Source of the DNA: a virus
Taxonomy: Duplodnaviria > Heunggongvirae > Uroviricota > Caudoviricetes
Length of the DNA stretch: 6,725 bases
Direction: 5' to 3' (one strand)
IMG/VR virus record: IMGVR_UViG_2548876853_000015
Shown: one piece after another, positions 189 through 6,170 of the stretch
How the letters are laid out: every line of letters begins with the position of its first letter
Position numbering within the stretch: the first letter of the stretch is position 1
Made by a program: the position numbers and the translations under genes
The notes under the pieces: generated by a model
What the model saw: the letters and a program-made list of their open reading frames with translations, nothing else
Databases searched by the model: none
Told to the model about the DNA's origin: nothing

Positions 189-373
189 AATGGCAGCCTC
201 CTTTGACTAAGTTAAGGAGCTACCGCGTGAGGTCTCAATCTCAATGGCGGTAGCACTGACTGGGTTGAGACTACCGGCGTCAAAGGGAACCGGCCTGCCT
301 TTCGGCAGCCCAGCCAGCACTACCATTGATTTCGGAGCTAAACGCTACGTATGGCTGTGCGATGGCATGACAC

Positions 374-395
374 AAAAAAAGACGCTTTCGGCGTC
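374..395 (-). terminator. Rho-independent terminator-like hairpin on the minus strand (GACGC-CGAAA-GCGTC followed by T7)
   Basis: Plus 381-395 gacgctttcggcgtc forms a 5-bp GC-rich stem with a 5-nt loop; plus 374-380 is an A7 run, giving a U7 tract on the minus-strand RNA directly 3' of the stem. It sits about 150 nt downstream of the pacB stop and about 100 nt downstream of the predicted promoter. Confidence 0.5.
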
Positions 396-501
396 TGTGT
401 CGCCTTTGACATTATCCGGGGTCTCAATCCCGGCACCCGTTTTAATGAGGTGCCTGATAAGCATAAACCGAAAATGCCTCAAGGCGCAAGAGGTCAGGTT
501 C

Positions 502-547: not shown

Positions 548-2032
548 TCATTCATTAAGCCATGCCAGAGCTTCATCAACCTGCGCTTCGTCTTCGACGC
601 TAAGCACTTCATCCTGGGGAACATAATCCGCCAGCATAGCGAAACAATATGTATCCCAATGGTCTGGTGAGTGCAGGTTGAGTTTTTTCTTCATATCCTC
701 CTTACTCATCACCTTCCATTGACCTGCGGAGTTAATCCCTACAGGGATTTTCGACGCTTCCTCAATAGTTTCATTACCCTTATCCAGTCTCATACGACCA
801 GATTTTACGGCCTCTGCGGCTTGAACGTTGGCATAAGCACGTTTATCAAAGTACAGGCTCTTATCTTCACGGCTATGCATCTTTTTACCCCAGCGTATGC
901 GCTGTACGGTAATACCATAATACTCGTACATCAGATCCGCCGTTGCTTTACCCAGGCCATCGCCGTCTATCGCTATGGTGATATTTGGGAATCGCTCAGG
1001 ATTACATTCTGCGAAAATTTTGGCGGCAAGCTGCGTTTCTGTAACGTCTGTGTATTCCAGCATTCGATAGTTGATTACACGGCGTTTATTTCGCTGGCCG
1101 GACACCATCATGATATTGATAACGGACTTATCCCGTCCCGTACCACCAGCAACGTCCACACATGCAAGCCAGCCCCATCCTTTTGCAATCTTGACTTTCC
1201 GCCGCGTTGCACGTTCAACCTCATCACGTCCAAGAAGGAAGCCATCCTGTGATTTAGGGAATAGGCCGCGTACCTTAATCATGTACATAGGGTTATCACG
1301 CCCGCCGTACTCCGCCAGCTTCATTTTGATAAATGCTGGCGTTACCAACGGTGATTCCTCACTGTTAAGCGTGATCGCCGTATAAACGCCATCAGGGTTA
1401 CCAGGACGCTTGGCCAGTTTATGGTGTGTATCGTAGAAATAGCCGCTTGGGCGTGTAGGCTGTGACAGTAATAAGATGCGGTTATCCTGTCCGGTAAGAG
1501 CACCGGTGATGATACCGAAAGCTCTATCACTGACACCGGAGGCTTCATCGATAATATACAGAAGATGATCTGCGTGTTCACCGGCAAGAGCTTCTTCACT
1601 TCCCAGACGAAAGCCCTTCGGTACTACAGTCCATACACCTTTACCAGTAACCTCATAGAAAGCGGTTTCTGTCAGAACAAAATAATCAGCAAGCCATGGA
1701 AAACGGCTGGTGGCAGTAGCCCAGTTTATCTTGATGTACTTGAATATACCGGTCATTACCTGCTGAATTTTGTTCGCAACGATAATGGCGCGGGCACCGG
1801 GATACATGATTATGAACAACATGATCATGATAGAAGTCATGTCTGATTTCCCGGTACCGTGACCAGACGAAACAGATGTCTTGCTACCCTGTTCCTGCAC
1901 AGACTCAATAATCAGATCCTGCTGCCAGGTAGGTGTTTTGCCGAACAAAACATCAGCGGCCGCAATCCAGTCATAACGATATAGCGCCACCAGCTCGCGC
2001 CAACGTGGATCCGTTACGCAACTTCTGGCCAT
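548..2032 (-). CDS. pacB: Terminase large subunit (P1 PacB-type), 494 aa
   Basis: 494-aa ORF with a Walker-A-like ATPase motif (SSGHGTGKS). Start ATG overlaps the pacA stop by one nt (TAATG). Size and position match the recalled P1 PacB (494 aa). Confidence 0.9.
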
Positions 2033-3225
2033 TAATCATCATCCCCGTATAGCTTGCGGGTAACTTCTTCGTCTTCCTCCTCGTCTTCGTCCAGGTCTTG
2101 TTCCAGCCATGGGTCGTTTGATACACCTTCAGTATCAACATCTCCATAACCGCCTGTATCAACGATATCGGCGATTTCTTCCCTACGCTGCTCAATCCAC
2201 AATGCGGCATCGGCGCGGCGGTTGGCGGCCCGTTCTCGCGCAACTTTGTCCAGATCTTCAAGAGAAGGGCCACCGACGGCTGTTTGCCTTTCCTCATCAT
2301 CGGTATTGGTCTTAGGAGCACGCAGATCGGCTTTGATTTGCTCCAGCATCAGGGGCGGAACTTTCCCACCATGCGCCTCGATAAATTCAGCTGCTTCCAG
2401 CACTGACCAGTTATTTTCACGCTTTCGTTCGTATGCCAGCTTAACAATGCCAGCTTGCCCCATAGACAAAGCGTGCTTTTCCGCCTCCCGGCTTTCTTTT
2501 CGATAGTTATTCCGGATGCTGTAAATGGTGTTGATCAGACTGCTTATCTGCGCGGAACAGCTGTTTAGCATGCTCGCGATACGGTATTCAGGCGGAGTGC
2601 CTTCATCATCGTCTTTTTGCTGATCGCGCATTTCCTGCACCAGGCGAATACACGTATCCCTGGCGTTCTCCAGCATAAGGAGATGAGAAAGAGACTTTTC
2701 AAGAAGAGTGGTTTCCAGAACATCGGCCCCGGACCGACGCAACATAGCGCGTGCGGCCTTCCGCGCTTCAACGTTATCTATCAGGTAATCGCCAGCTTCG
2801 AATTCAAAGCGTTCACCATCATCATCCAGGGTGTCGCGTTCCAGACGATCACGCAAGGTCCGGTGGGCGCGGGTGATCACGTCATGATCATCTGAACGAT
2901 CATTTATGCGCTTATTTTGGCGCTTCGCATTCTCGACTGCGGCACTGACAACGGCATTAACTCTCTGTTTTTCCGCTATTTCAGCCGCAATATGATCACC
3001 TGCATGTTGATCATTAGAGTGATCAATGATCATGCTTTTTAGTGGCTTCCTGACTGGCTTATTTGGCTTGCGGCTGTCCGCAGTCCTGGTGTCTTCTTTG
3101 AAGGCACGGAGATAACGACGTGCGGTATTAGGGTTAAGATTAAACTCGGCGGCATACTGTGCGATGGTGTAACCACCATCTCGCGCCAGGCGAGCAAAAT
3201 TCTTCTTGTGATCGTCCCAGGTCAC
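2032..3225 (-). CDS. pacA: Terminase small / pac-recognition subunit (P1 PacA-type), 397 aa, GTG start
   Basis: 397-aa ORF with an N-terminal helix-turn-helix-like segment ([27 protein letters not shown]) and a highly acidic C-terminus. GTG start at 3225 with SD AAGGAAG 5 nt upstream and an in-frame stop immediately upstream. The pac hexamer clusters lie inside its 5' third, as in P1. Confidence 0.88.
2874..3032. other. pac packaging site: two clusters of TGATCA/G hexamers (Dam GATC sites) flanking a roughly 90-bp hexamer-free core
   Basis: Hexamers at 2874-2879, 2885-2890 and 2897-2902 (the last as cgatca, i.e. TGATCG on the other strand), then 2993-2998, 3008-3013, 3020-3025 and 3027-3032. 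This 3 + 4 arrangement over about 160 bp matches the recalled P1 pac site (about 162 bp, seven hexamers). One further cgatca lies at 2846-2851. Confidence 0.75.
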
Positions 3226-3310: not shown

Positions 3311-3763
3311 TCAGATACGTGCGGATGTGGCATTACCGTAATGACGGTGCTGACGGGCCACCTTATTGAAAAGTTGACGCGCCATTACCCAAGGCTGGTG
3401 CTCCCGGCGTTCCTTTTCGTCCTGCGTCATATAGAGTTCGTTCTGGAGTTTTTCATCAAACCGGCGCGGAGCGCGGCTACGGCGAAAGAATTCAGGATTC
3501 AGAGAGTGGATCTGAAATCTACGTGGGCGTGTACTGTCATCAATCAAAACAGACGAATACTTAGACACAGCGATAGCCTTTAAGCGCAGATAAACATCGC
3601 GCTTATCGACATCCAGATGCGGGTATTCCTTTTCAAGAATTGCTGCGAGTTCTTTCGCTGATAGAAGAGATTTAGTGCGGATCATGTAATCCGCAATCTC
3701 GTACGATGTTATTCGTGAGTGATTTATTTCCATGAAGTGGCGTCCCTGCCAGTTAAGTAACAT
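3311..3763 (-). CDS. lpa: Candidate late-promoter activator (P1 Lpa / gene 10-like), 150 aa, basic
   Basis: 150-aa ORF immediately upstream of pacA, the position I recall for P1 lpa. SD GGTGA lies 4 nt before the ATG at 3763. Assignment is by synteny and size, not by a recognised motif; an alternative start exists at 3733 (MEINHSR...). Confidence 0.55.
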   Translation of the reverse strand: MLLNWQGRHFMEINHSRITSYEIADYMIRTKSLLSAKELAAILEKEYPHLDVDKRDVYLRLKAIAVSKYSSVLIDDSTRPRRFQIHSLNPEFFRRSRAPRRFDEKLQNELYMTQDEKERREHQPWVMARQLFNKVARQHRHYGNATSARI

Positions 3764-3808
3764 CCTGTCACCTACTGATTAGCCCATGTCAACTAATCAA
3801 CGTGGAAT

Positions 3809-3850
3809 ATAATACCCTCGATTAAAGAAATAGCAACACATTAGAGCAAT
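3809..3850 (-). promoter_or_regulatory. Candidate sigma70 promoter for lpa with an adjacent C1-operator-like element
   Basis: Minus strand: ATTGCTCTAAT (3850..3840) matches the first 11 positions of the recalled C1 operator consensus (13 of 17 over the full 17-mer). Then -35 TTGCTA (3836..3831), 16-nt spacer, -10 TATTAT (3814..3809). Consistent with lpa being C1-controlled in P1. Confidence 0.45.
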
Positions 3851-3851
3851 T

Positions 3852-4895
3852 TTATCTAACGCTCGACGAGTGACTTGTGATAGCGCCGACTCCAAGCGCG
3901 TAATCAAAGAACAATCGTTGATGCATCGCCAGCCTACCGTGCGTCTTCTCCCAATTATCGCGGTCACGCTCAATATCACGCTGGCATGACTGGCACAGAG
4001 GAATTGCGTAAATGTCATGCGCGCATAATCGACTATGACGAACGATATAAGGCGTAATGTGAGCGCCAGCTCCCGCCGCTCCACACCCACAGCATGGACG
4101 GGAAGCAACAAAGTCCATGTACTCAGGTAATTTTAGCGATTGCAGTTTTGGTATTTTGAAATGCGCCATGCCAGGGTCGGAGTCAACATCCACAGGGCAT
4201 ACTTTTGCACGCATCGGCGCGGCGCGTTCTTCCATCATCTGAACATATGCTGTAGCGCGATCGTCATACGGGCGAATATCCGCCTCTTTCAGAGGTCCGC
4301 TATCCTGCGTTGCGGCTTTCATCTTATTTATTGATATACGGCAAACTTCTTCCGGCATCAGGTGCATCATGTTGCGCATGAAAGCCCACCAGCACAGTTC
4401 CTGAATACTTAAATCATGGCCATCTGAAAACCCCATTTCCTGACGGGCGACATCCAGGATCCAGTTAACGCGATTATTATGCAGCGTTTCTTTCAGCTCA
4501 TTAAAACCACGCATCCGGTAATGGTTATCGTGATGCCAGCACAACAACACCGCGCTATTGTCTCGTTCTGCGTGGACAATATGGTTGTCACACCAGCTAC
4601 GATCTGCGGCCTGGCATTGCCCCTCTTTCCTGCGCAACCACGCCACCAGCGCGTCAATTCCACCAATACGGCGAAACAGTTCATCGCTGTTAAAAAACGG
4701 CTGCAACGCCTCATTTGTTGCCATAGTTTGCTCGGAAACAACGAGGCCGTCGTCCATGTGCTCGATTAACTCACGCGGCACCGGCTCCATAATAAATTTA
4801 CGGCCAGCCTCCACCAGCTTTCTGACTTCCTGATCCACTTTGAATGTGGCGACGCCAAGCTCTTTTTGTACAAAGGGAGTAATTACGGCTTTCAC
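3852..4895 (-). CDS. Post-doc region protein, 347 aa, with a Cys/His-rich C-terminal module (possible zinc-binding HNH-like fold); function unknown
   Basis: 347-aa ORF with GTG start at 4895 (SD AAGGTG upstream). The C-terminus carries CCGCG ... H ... H ... CAH ... CQSC spacing typical of zinc-ribbon / HNH-like motifs. The position between doc and lpa corresponds to the pdc (post-doc) genes of P1; a resemblance to DUF968-type prophage proteins is a recollection, not verified. Confidence 0.65.
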
Positions 4896-4922
4896 ATCAC
4901 ACCTTTCATCACTGATTGGGCT

Positions 4923-5102
4923 TTATCTGCTGCCCGGCATTCTCTGTTTAAGCACAACCATTTCCTGACGGCATAACACAGCAATAGCAGTCCTGGCTCT
5001 AATTTGCTTACCAACCAGGTATTGCTTTACCTCGCGGCGACTCACGCCATCAAGAAGCATCTTTAACGCTTCACGGGACAATTTGTTGTATTTGCGTGCC
5101 AT
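4923..5102 (-). CDS. Small basic protein (59 aa) immediately downstream of doc, possible helix-turn-helix; post-doc region
   Basis: ATG at 5102-5100 lies 4 nt after the doc stop, and its SD (GGAG, 7-nt spacer) is embedded in the last doc codons, suggesting co-transcription with phd-doc. The track start at 5123 would overlap doc and lacks an SD. Protein MARKYNKLSREALKMLLDGVSRREVKQYLVGK... is Arg/Lys-rich. Confidence 0.5.
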   Translation of the reverse strand: MARKYNKLSREALKMLLDGVSRREVKQYLVGKQIRARTAIAVLCRQEMVVLKQRMPGSR

Positions 5103-5106
5103 TAAT

Positions 5107-5487
5107 CTACTCCGCAGAACCATACAATCTACGTAACGTGGCGGCGACAGAAGATACAGATATCTCGCCAGTCGCAGCCCCTACGGTAAGGTCTGCCAGT
5201 TCAGGTGAATCAAATACCTGCACCCCGTTACGGCGTAGAAATAGCAGCGCACTGTTTAGCGCGGTACGCTTATTGGCATCATTGAATATATGCCCTCTCG
5301 CAGTAGCAACCAGGTAGGTTGCGGAGATTTCGAAAAGGTCGGTGATCTCTTCGTAGGCAACTCTGGCCTGAACTCTCCCGATAATGGCCTCTGCCCTACC
5401 CGGATCTGACATTCCCGGCAGGCCGCCGTAGCGGCTTATATTCGCATCATGAAGCGCAATAAGTTCTTCCGGTGATATATGCCTCAT
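5107..5487 (-). CDS. doc: Doc toxin (Fic/Doc family kinase that targets EF-Tu), 126 aa
   Basis: Fic-type motif HIFNDANKR is present. The sequence matches my recollection of P1 Doc nearly residue-for-residue. Start ATG overlaps the phd stop by 1 nt (TAATG). Confidence 0.95.
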
Positions 5488-5708
5488 TATCGGTTAACCA
5501 GTTCCTTGTTGGTGGAGTCCAGGGTGTCAAACAGGGATGCAAATTCAGCATCCAGCGCCGCTTTTTTGTAGGCTTCGAAAGTAGCCTTGCTGACAATTAC
5601 TGCTGGCTCACGGCCTCTGCGGGTGATTTCAACCTCTTCCCCGGCTTCAACATTGTTAAGCACTTCAGAAAGGTTGCCACGCGCGGTACGGAAGTTAATG
5701 GATTGCAT
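5487..5708 (-). CDS. phd: Phd antitoxin (prevent-host-death), 73 aa
   Basis: [49 protein letters not shown]... matches recalled P1 Phd. I place the start at the ATG at 5708 (SD GAGGTG upstream) rather than the track's GTG at 5714. Overlaps doc. Confidence 0.93.
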
Positions 5709-5716
5709 AAACACCT

Positions 5717-5745
5717 CGTGTACTCGTTATGTGTACACAATTATA
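5717..5745 (-). promoter_or_regulatory. phd-doc promoter/operator: -10 TATAAT followed by two palindromic Phd/Doc operator sites
   Basis: Minus-strand TATAAT at 5745..5740. A perfect 10-bp palindrome TGTGTACACA (5730-5739) and an imperfect one CGTGTACTCG (5717-5726) lie between the -10 and the SD, consistent with known autorepression of this operon by Phd and Doc. Confidence 0.7.
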
Positions 5746-5780
5746 AACTTCACAGGCATAAAGCACCAGCACTTTGCAGC

Positions 5781-6170
5781 TTAAATGATCGGACAATCAT
5801 CAAACTCCCCACATCGGGCATCATTGATGACATGAGTGATCACACCAAAAACAGCATTACTACCCGTGTAACCATCGTCATCTACTGGTAACGCCTCTTT
5901 CTTCCCGGTGCTTAAATCCTCCAGGTGCTGGCGCGGATACTTCCTGTATCTCTTTATGCGATATTCACCCTCCATAGCGCAGACAAGCAGCGAACCATCA
6001 ACCGGAGTAAGCGAGGAATCAACCACCAGCAAAGCACCCTGCAATATTCCCTCACGGTGATGGCTGTCTGCCGCCCGCATGAAGTAGGTCGCTGATGGAT
6101 GCCTGATTAGTTGCTGATCAAGAGAAATTCTGCTTTCAACATAATCCGCCGCAGGAGAAGGGAAGCCCAT
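5781..6170 (-). CDS. humD: UmuD'-like translesion-synthesis accessory protein (P1 HumD-type), 129 aa, S24 peptidase-like fold without the N-terminal cleavable arm
   Basis: Strong similarity to recalled E. coli UmuD from the GFPSPAADYVE region onward (HPSATYF, VVDS, FGVITHV blocks). The protein begins about where UmuD is processed to UmuD'. SD GAGGTG upstream. Confidence 0.9.
   Translation of the reverse strand: MGFPSPAADYVESRISLDQQLIRHPSATYFMRAADSHHREGILQGALLVVDSSLTPVDGSLLVCAMEGEYRIKRYRKYPRQHLEDLSTGKKEALPVDDDGYTGSNAVFGVITHVINDARCGEFDDCPII

Follow-up and report, generated by a model that had tools for sequence, protein, structure and literature searches.

Several type II toxin–antitoxin (TA) operons contain a gene after the toxin gene, e.g. 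mazG in mazEFG and relF/hokD in relBEF, and three-part TA systems with a separate regulator include paaR2-paaA2-parE2 and omega-epsilon-zeta. In the case of the P1 phd-doc operon, phd and doc alone reportedly give addiction, and autoregulation is said to be exerted by Phd, with Doc as the co-repressor. Here, we analysed the gene that directly follows doc in a 6,725-nt stretch of DNA from a virus (Caudoviricetes; IMG/VR record IMGVR_UViG_2548876853_000015), which as a whole is referred to as the window. Like the extra genes of the systems above, this gene, pdcA, is a small additional cistron in a TA operon that may be co-transcribed with its neighbours and possibly encodes a DNA-binding protein. 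In contrast, PdcA lacks homology to the components of those systems, and pdcA does not consistently co-occur with the TA family.

Identity of the small ORF downstream of doc

The window is a segment of an RCS47/P1-type phage-plasmid, in which every large ORF lies on the minus strand and the gene order, humD-phd-doc-pdcA-pdcB-lpa-pacA-pacB, is that of P1 (Table 1). Megablast comparison of positions 3800–5800 revealed 97–98.5% DNA identity to the phages RCS47, P1, P7 and SJ46, whose records name the small ORF PdcA, or Fdc in the case of P7, and the 347-aa ORF PdcB; positions 4896–5130 are 100% identical to the E. coli plasmid NZ_CP027590.1. Whereas the first-pass annotation had treated the ORF as unnamed, it is the P1 gene pdcA ('post-doc' gene A; fdc in P7), annotated since 2004 and hence already known. 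The 59-position profile of PHROG 3345 aligns with residues 1–59 of the 59 residues of the product (E = 2.4e-42), many 'PdcA protein' entries at NCBI are likewise 59 aa long, and protein identity to P1 PdcA (AAQ14076.1), P7 Fdc, PHROG 3345 and these NCBI entries is 93–98%. In addition to this full-length profile match, the gene stands immediately 3′ of doc and upstream of pdcB and lpa, its place between doc and pdcB being the same as in P1. The window allele differs from most other PdcA alleles in carrying Arg35, where the others have Gly. We found no function for PdcA in the literature or in database records of the P1/P7/RCS47 type.

The ORF had been described in the first pass as 59 codons that begin 4 nt past the doc stop codon, with the SD sequence inside doc. 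All coordinates of this arrangement were confirmed on the minus strand, where the doc/pdcA junction reads ...GGT TCT GCG GAG TAG ATTA ATG GCA CGC...

Table 1. Features of the humD-pacB segment of the window.
Feature	Position	Strand	Basis
pacB	548-2032	-	ORF map
pacA	2032-3225	-	ORF map
lpa	3311-3763	-	ORF map; Pfam Lpa
pdcB, 347 aa, DUF968 / HNH-like; GTG start at 4895..4893	3852..4895	-	Pfam DUF968 E=3.1e-50; PHROG 96 E=1.7e-128 from residue 1; P1 annotation
pdcA-pdcB spacer, 27 nt, with pdcB SD AAGGTG (4905..4900)	4896..4922	-	Sequence
pdcA CDS, 59 aa + TAA (4925..4923); ATG 5102..5100	4923..5102	-	PHROG 3345; NCBI 'PdcA protein' 59 aa; PGAP model in NZ_CP027590.1; AF2; dN/dS
ATTA, 4 bases between doc TAG and pdcA ATG	5106..5103	-	Sequence
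GGAG, SD core for pdcA, in the final two sense codons of doc (GCG GAG), 7 nt before ATG	5110..5113	-	Sequence
7-codon 5′ extension in P1, P7 and RCS47 GenBank CDS (66 aa, overlaps doc); probably untranslated	5103..5123	-	No SD; homologue N-termini
doc, Fic-family toxin, 126 aa, second cistron; TAG 5109..5107	5107..5487	-	Pfam Fic/DOC E=2.1e-9; P1 annotation
phd, antitoxin, 73 aa, first cistron; stop overlaps doc start by 1 nt	5487..5708	-	Pfam PhdYeFM_antitox E=3.1e-13; P1 annotation; translation
humD	5781-6170	-	ORF map

Coding status, start codon and the junction with pdcB

Because the window contains 72 ORFs of at least 30 aa, an ORF of 59 codons is by size alone unremarkable; it is conservation that places it above chance. 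Conservation in related elements, on which the first-pass annotation had let the ORF stand or fall, was indeed present. Of 80 related viral contigs, 77 retain the SD sequence and start codon, and the 33 pdcA DNA alleles carried by 81 P1-like loci contain zero stop codons, with 11 synonymous and 14 non-synonymous variants representing a synonymous excess (binomial p = 0.012). The pN/pS ratio in these loci was 0.36 for pdcA and 0.24 for pdcB, as compared with 0.06 for phd and 0.10 for doc, which indicates a looser constraint on pdcA than on phd or doc. A word-indexed protein search returned only near-identical P1-type proteins as well as frameshifted or truncated variants. It was only when 1.84 billion representative proteins were scanned exhaustively with HMMER that one distant cluster emerged, namely P0101 from Yersinia mollaretii, a 61-aa protein with 43% identity; two more Yersinia-type alleles were obtained thereafter. 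The three Yersinia-type homologues show dS values of 1.1–1.7 and dN/dS ratios of 0.10–0.17. Fifteen positions are invariant across the PdcA family, namely M1, N6, L8, L13, M15, L16, G19, R22, K26, R37, L43, C44, E47, M48 and V49. Among complete E. coli genomes, 1098 of 5426 (∼20%) carry pdcA, almost always on plasmids. Rfam gave no RNA family in or near positions 4895–5109. Judged by its pattern of sequence conservation, pdcA is a genuine protein-coding gene.

It is highly improbable that the ORF is an unexpressed chance ORF or, alternatively, that read-through of its stop codon links it to PdcB. The former would be consistent with its short length and the lack of a Pfam family, but the diverged homologues are under purifying selection, and the absence of stop codons and the synonymous excess among the 81 alleles argue in the same direction. 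As to the latter, the first-pass annotation had drawn attention to the junction at which the pdcA stop codon lies in frame with, and 27 nt upstream of, the GTG start of pdcB. This junction is real and the two codons share a frame in 77 of 80 loci, but it appears to carry no meaning and is not conserved. While the spacer measures 27 nt in these 77 loci, it is 26 nt and thus out of frame in 2/80, and an in-frame placement is expected by chance in one of three cases. Moreover, the pdcA stop codon is TAA, and in P1 and 20 of the 80 loci the spacer contains a second in-frame TAA (GAT TAA AGG...). No PdcA-like segment joined to a larger protein was found among the 1.84 billion representatives, in which no PdcA match exceeded 97 aa. 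PHROG 96 and PHROG 11007 both align with PdcB from residue 1 or 2, supporting the GTG as its start codon. A PdcA–PdcB read-through or fusion product was rejected on the basis of the 26-nt spacers, the extra TAA and the lack of fused homologues; the in-frame relation of the pdcA stop and the pdcB GTG looks like chance, i.e. it is apparently coincidental and unconstrained.

In the P1, P7 and RCS47 GenBank records, the pdcA CDS starts 21 nt upstream of the 59-aa start in the window, at an ATG at 5123, yielding 66 aa and a 17-nt overlap with doc. No purine-rich, SD-like run was found in the sequence preceding this ATG. The ATG at 5102, in contrast, is preceded by GCGGAG at ideal spacing, an arrangement that 77 of the 80 related IMG/VR loci retain, and GCGGAG is also kept where the upstream gene is not doc (loci L081 and L078, described below). 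The 5102 start is used by PGAP, the phage D6 annotation and PHROG 3345, with all of which the gene model of the first pass, 59 aa with the SD in doc, agrees. In addition, the Yersinia homologues begin, in the alignment, where the 59-aa model does, and the upstream ATG is absent from L081. Collectively, the lack of an SD at 5123, the conserved GCGGAG, the homologue N-termini and L081 make the 59-aa start appear better supported than the 66-aa CDS of the P1 record, and the CDS in the P1, P7 and RCS47 GenBank records is probably to be corrected accordingly.

Predicted fold of PdcA

PdcA is a strongly basic protein of 59 residues (6.9 kDa, pI ∼11.3) that contains 15 Lys and Arg versus four Asp and Glu residues, i.e. 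a net charge of +11; its Yersinia homologues have pI values of 11.0–11.5. AlphaFold2, run on a 9-sequence alignment, predicted with good confidence a three-helix bundle (pLDDT 86, pTM 0.70) with helices at residues 2–17, 22–31 and 36–54. By eye, residues 11–30 (LKMLLDGVSRREVKQYL) resemble a helix–Gly–helix DNA-binding motif, of which Gly19 is invariant.

The first-pass annotation had suggested a possible HTH, and this is plausible: the three helices, the net charge and the HTH-like stretch agree with it, whereas neither an HTH match in Pfam or NCBIfam nor a significant Foldseek match was obtained. Specifically, Pfam returned no PdcA family at E ≤ 1, the best NCBIfam match, a transposase N-terminal domain (E = 0.037), fell far below its cut-off, PADLOC gave nothing usable for PdcA, and a profile search against PDB sequences yielded only chance matches (a designed repeat protein and MESD). 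Foldseek comparison with PDB and BFVD gave no match at E ≤ 0.001, the best E-values being 1.9 and 0.2 respectively. The best PDB match was the Mu transposase I-beta DNA-binding subdomain (E = 1.9, query-normalised TM-score 0.63), and 10 of the best 50 PDB matches were DNA-binding HTH structures, i.e. MuA I-beta, CENP-B, FixJ, sigma-E region 4, a serine recombinase, EvgA, KorA and TrpR; many ribosomal protein chains matched equally well, none of these matches being significant. The best BFVD matches were uncharacterised phage proteins with E-values of 0.2 or worse.

When compared with small HTH domains such as MuA I-beta (2ezk/4fcy), sigma-70 region 4, the C-terminal domains of FixJ and EvgA, and KorA, PdcA shares the three helices (in the model), the basic surface and the helix–Gly–helix arrangement, but its third helix is unusually long and hydrophobic, Foldseek E-values were at least 1.9, and no Pfam or PDB sequence-profile match was obtained. 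Helix 3 harbours the most conserved segment of the protein, LLC+QEMV, which is largely hydrophobic and could be a protein–protein interface rather than a DNA-reading surface. PdcA is most likely, albeit unproven, a small basic HTH-like nucleic-acid-binding protein; it would bind nucleic acid, probably DNA, through the predicted HTH-like stretch at approximately residues 11–30. The Yersinia genes are preceded by a conserved 9-bp inverted repeat, ATTATTGTC-N3-GACAATAAT, which could be an operator. No ATTATTGTC-N3-GACAATAAT-like site was found in the window, nor any other relevant inverted repeat near pdcA.

Relation of pdcA to phd-doc and pdcB

The first-pass proposal that the ORF is the third cistron of the phd-doc transcript is supported by the genetic context, namely the 4-nt gap to doc, the lack of an intervening terminator or promoter consensus, and a terminator in phage D6; it is from these features that we infer co-transcription. 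On the coding strand, neither a terminator-like nor a sigma-70-like consensus was found between doc, pdcA and pdcB. The homology of D6 to the window extends from 5745 to 4921 and ends at the 3′ end of pdcA, which in D6 encodes 65 aa owing to a change of TAA to CAA. Directly 3′ of D6 pdcA lies GCCCGC-N8-GCGGGC-TTTTT, a strong GC hairpin followed by a T-run, and the 71-nt segment with this hairpin folds with approximately −19.5 kcal/mol. The gene beyond the D6 terminator is convergent, and there is no pdcB. A related hairpin is found in another phage-plasmid (L014), where it directly follows a ∼90%-identical doc gene and pdcA is absent.

The 20 nt upstream of the pdcA ATG travel with pdcA, such that the junction GCGGAGTA(G/A)ATTAATG is retained when another ORF stands upstream. 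In L081, a 74-aa ribbon-helix-helix-like ORF, which ends ...GCT GCG GAG TAA ATTA ATG, takes the place of phd-doc; in L078, doc and pdcA are separated by an additional 91-aa ORF, which carries the C-terminal tail of Doc, and the same junction is found. These data are compatible with a model in which ribosomes terminating on the preceding cistron go straight on to translate pdcA. Going by this anatomy, pdcA would be transcribed from the autoregulated phd promoter as the third cistron and be translated by ribosomes finishing doc, either by coupling or by re-initiation, which would result in a low level of PdcA in the plasmid-prophage state.

Although placed in the phd-doc operon, pdcA is probably outside the core TA mechanism. 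In ∼90%-identical phd-doc alleles sampled from other phage-plasmids and IncFIB plasmids, pdcA is missing or reduced to a 29-codon remnant, while L081 contains pdcA-pdcB without phd-doc. The Yersinia homologues are stand-alone genes, separated in both directions, as far as flanking sequence is available, by ∼70–150 nt from the closest called gene or ORF. Upstream of the homologue, two species have an HTH_3 gene of the c-repressor type together with a Ner-like HTH_35 gene; downstream, the context varies and includes umuDC, a gene for a MOSC-domain oxidoreductase, an unassigned 133-aa ORF followed by a 526-aa ORF, or prlF-yhaV. Collectively, the consistent co-occurrence with a TA pair that would mark a third TA component was not observed. 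IncFIA/FIB/FII plasmids carry a fragment equivalent to window positions 4618–5784, i.e. phd-doc-pdcA and the initial 278 nt of pdcB, flanked on one side by an IS5 and on the other by a type I restriction-modification locus. Since the five sampled IncF copies have identical protein accessions (PdcA WP_001513661.1) and the same context, they reflect one acquisition rather than repeated retention, and we dropped the intact pdcA of these plasmids as strong evidence of selection because the sampled copies represent one clonal insertion.

Could PdcA nevertheless be a functional third component of the Phd/Doc module, e.g. by co-regulating Pphd as a DNA-binding protein or by modulating Doc or Phd? We consider this unlikely. 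It would account for the tight packing of pdcA after doc with its SD inside the toxin gene, and for the phd-doc-pdcA unit shared with D6, where homology extends no further than the pdcA stop codon, next to which lies a terminator; the unit is also common to the IncF lineage, 1130 of the 1250 PLSDB plasmids with a P1-type doc match cover pdcA as well, and 99 nt separate one distant homologue from the prlF-yhaV TA pair downstream of it. However, closely related phd-doc pairs without pdcA and the pdcA-pdcB pair of L081 argue against a joint function, the PdcA family is limited to one narrow doc clade and the stand-alone Yersinia genes, and pdcA is under less constraint than either phd or doc. Likewise, phd-doc is said to suffice for addiction, and Phd together with Doc for autoregulation. 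The more specific version, in which PdcA is a DNA- or protein-binding third partner of Phd/Doc, is coupled to doc translation and tunes operon repression or Doc/Phd activity, seems quite unlikely.

It is similarly doubtful that PdcA and PdcB form a two-gene unit, e.g. with PdcA as the small DNA-targeting partner of the DUF968/HNH-like protein, and that the place after doc is incidental. The two genes are 27 nt apart with no terminator between them, both are kept in almost all P1-like loci and persist in L081 despite the replacement of phd-doc, and their pN/pS ratios (0.36 and 0.24) are similar. In contrast, D6 has pdcA and then a terminator but no pdcB, the IncF lineage combines an intact pdcA with a pdcB cut to its first 278 nt, no DUF968 match is on record among the genes called around the Yersinia-type P0101 and P0102, and the wide distribution of DUF968 proteins (PHROG 96) is not shared by PdcA relatives. 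Rather, PdcA would be a small accessory factor that is autonomous, hitch-hiking in the operon without being integral to the TA mechanism. Taken as a whole, the explanation we favour, and regard as probable, is that pdcA is a coding third cistron, translationally coupled, whose nucleic-acid-binding product is such a hitch-hiker and dispensable for lytic growth, the frame shared with pdcB being coincidental.

That PdcA would be dispensable for lytic growth is consistent with the in-frame pdcA and pdcB deletions of P1 that are listed in the supplement of Gonzales et al. (2022; PMC9024508), and with a P1 CRISPRi essentiality map whose listing, citing that work, gives pdcA as nonessential (PMC10695390). 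In this map, pdcA itself was not targetable, as it has no PAM site, and pdcB is nonessential (PMC10695390); elsewhere, pdcB is called 'unknown' (PMC10067587).

Our analysis makes two modest additions to the annotation of pdcA, namely the 59-aa start and the view of the gene as a small autonomous cassette with its own translation-initiation stretch. pdcA is a very common gene inside one of the best-studied toxin–antitoxin operons, and the plasmids that bear it include a widespread IncFIA/FIB/FII lineage. 'phd-doc' fragments cloned from natural plasmids may thus include pdcA unnoticed. If pdcA had no effect on addiction, it would be one more small accessory gene; if it did affect addiction, the textbook two-gene P1 module, which accompanies pdcA in roughly one in five complete E. 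coli genomes, would have to be revised to a naturally tripartite one.

Upstream context, probable gain or loss, and decay of pdcA

In the P1-like 91-kb contig IMGVR_UViG_2913167280_000003, phd-doc is replaced by a 74-aa ORF of ribbon-helix-helix/NikA-like type (the Pfam matches are weak), and a LuxR-type gene lies farther upstream. The 3′ end of this ORF reads GCGGAG TAA ATTA ATG, i.e. the pdcA SD and the 4-nt junction are unchanged behind a different gene. A second P1-like locus, L078, carries an additional 91-aa ORF between doc and pdcA. The Doc C-terminal tail makes up its final ∼17 residues, while the doc gene ahead of this ORF has a different end (…LYGSKT); no family was matched to the 91-aa ORF in Pfam or PADLOC.

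Phage D6 and the related phage-plasmid L014 share an identical stop-plus-hairpin, …ATATTTGAAAAGAAGCCCGC…, which follows pdcA in D6 but directly follows doc in L014, where pdcA is absent. Judged from these sequences, pdcA was probably acquired or lost cleanly in the interval from the doc 3′ end to the terminator. In addition, the IncFIB plasmid NZ_CP110979.1 shows decay of pdcA in one lineage: its phd-doc genes, ∼91% identical, precede what is left of pdcA, the truncated MVRKYNKLSRDALKMLLDGVSSRKVMNRHG*, whose SD (GGCGTAG) is weakened.

Coordinates of features at pdcA loci and in the window
Feature	Locus	Position	Remark
Conserved inverted repeat	L005	∼4950–4975	upstream of pdcA-like gene
Conserved inverted repeat	L019	∼3930–3955	upstream of pdcA-like gene
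Conserved inverted repeat	L016	∼235–260	upstream of pdcA-like gene
Stretch with 74-aa ORF	L081 (IMGVR_UViG_2913167280_000003)	2272–2680	in place of phd-doc
91-aa ORF	L078	2221–2496	between doc and pdcA
Stop-plus-hairpin	L003 (D6)	2960–2985	after pdcA
Stop-plus-hairpin	L014	2965–2990	after doc
pdcA remnant	L015 (NZ_CP110979.1)	∼3001–3081	
C4 antisense RNA	window	243–330	minus strand; Rfam, 75 bits
IsrK Hfq-binding RNA	window	375–453	minus strand; Rfam, 60 bits
pdcB-lpa junction region	window	3764–3860	

Distant homologues in Yersinia-type loci

The distant PdcA homologues (loci L005–L012, L019 and L016) are encoded at the edge of a block that includes one c-like HTH_3 gene and one Ner-like HTH_35 gene, and from which the pdcA-like gene of Y. 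mollaretii is separated by a GNAT gene. In front of the pdcA-like genes of Yersinia, at a distance of 25–45 nt, an inverted repeat (ATTATTGTC-N3-GACAATAAT in Y. mollaretii) is conserved in DNA that otherwise aligns poorly, and is a candidate operator. The cargo following the distant homologues varies: umuDC, a MOSC-domain oxidoreductase gene, an unassigned 133-aa ORF followed by a 526-aa ORF, or prlF-yhaV. Likewise, in P1 the umuD homologue humD adjoins phd-doc-pdcA. Because the top PDB match of PdcA in Foldseek is the I-beta subdomain of Mu transposase, a connection with Mu-like elements is conceivable.

Flanking RNAs and transcription towards lpa

Two Rfam RNAs, C4 and IsrK, lie directly 3′ of pacB in the window, at the place beyond pacB where P1 has its c1 repressor gene. 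In the matching plasmid NZ_CP027590.1 and in RCS47, this stretch runs into ash (partial), icd-like and KilAC-antirepressor genes. The C4/IsrK stretch adjoining pacB is an immI-like module.

On the coding strand, no terminator-like site was found from the phd promoter to lpa. In P1, the C1 operator Olpa starts 2 nt past the pdcB stop. In lysogens, read-through from Pphd into the late-promoter activator gene might be stopped by a C1 roadblock or by Rho.
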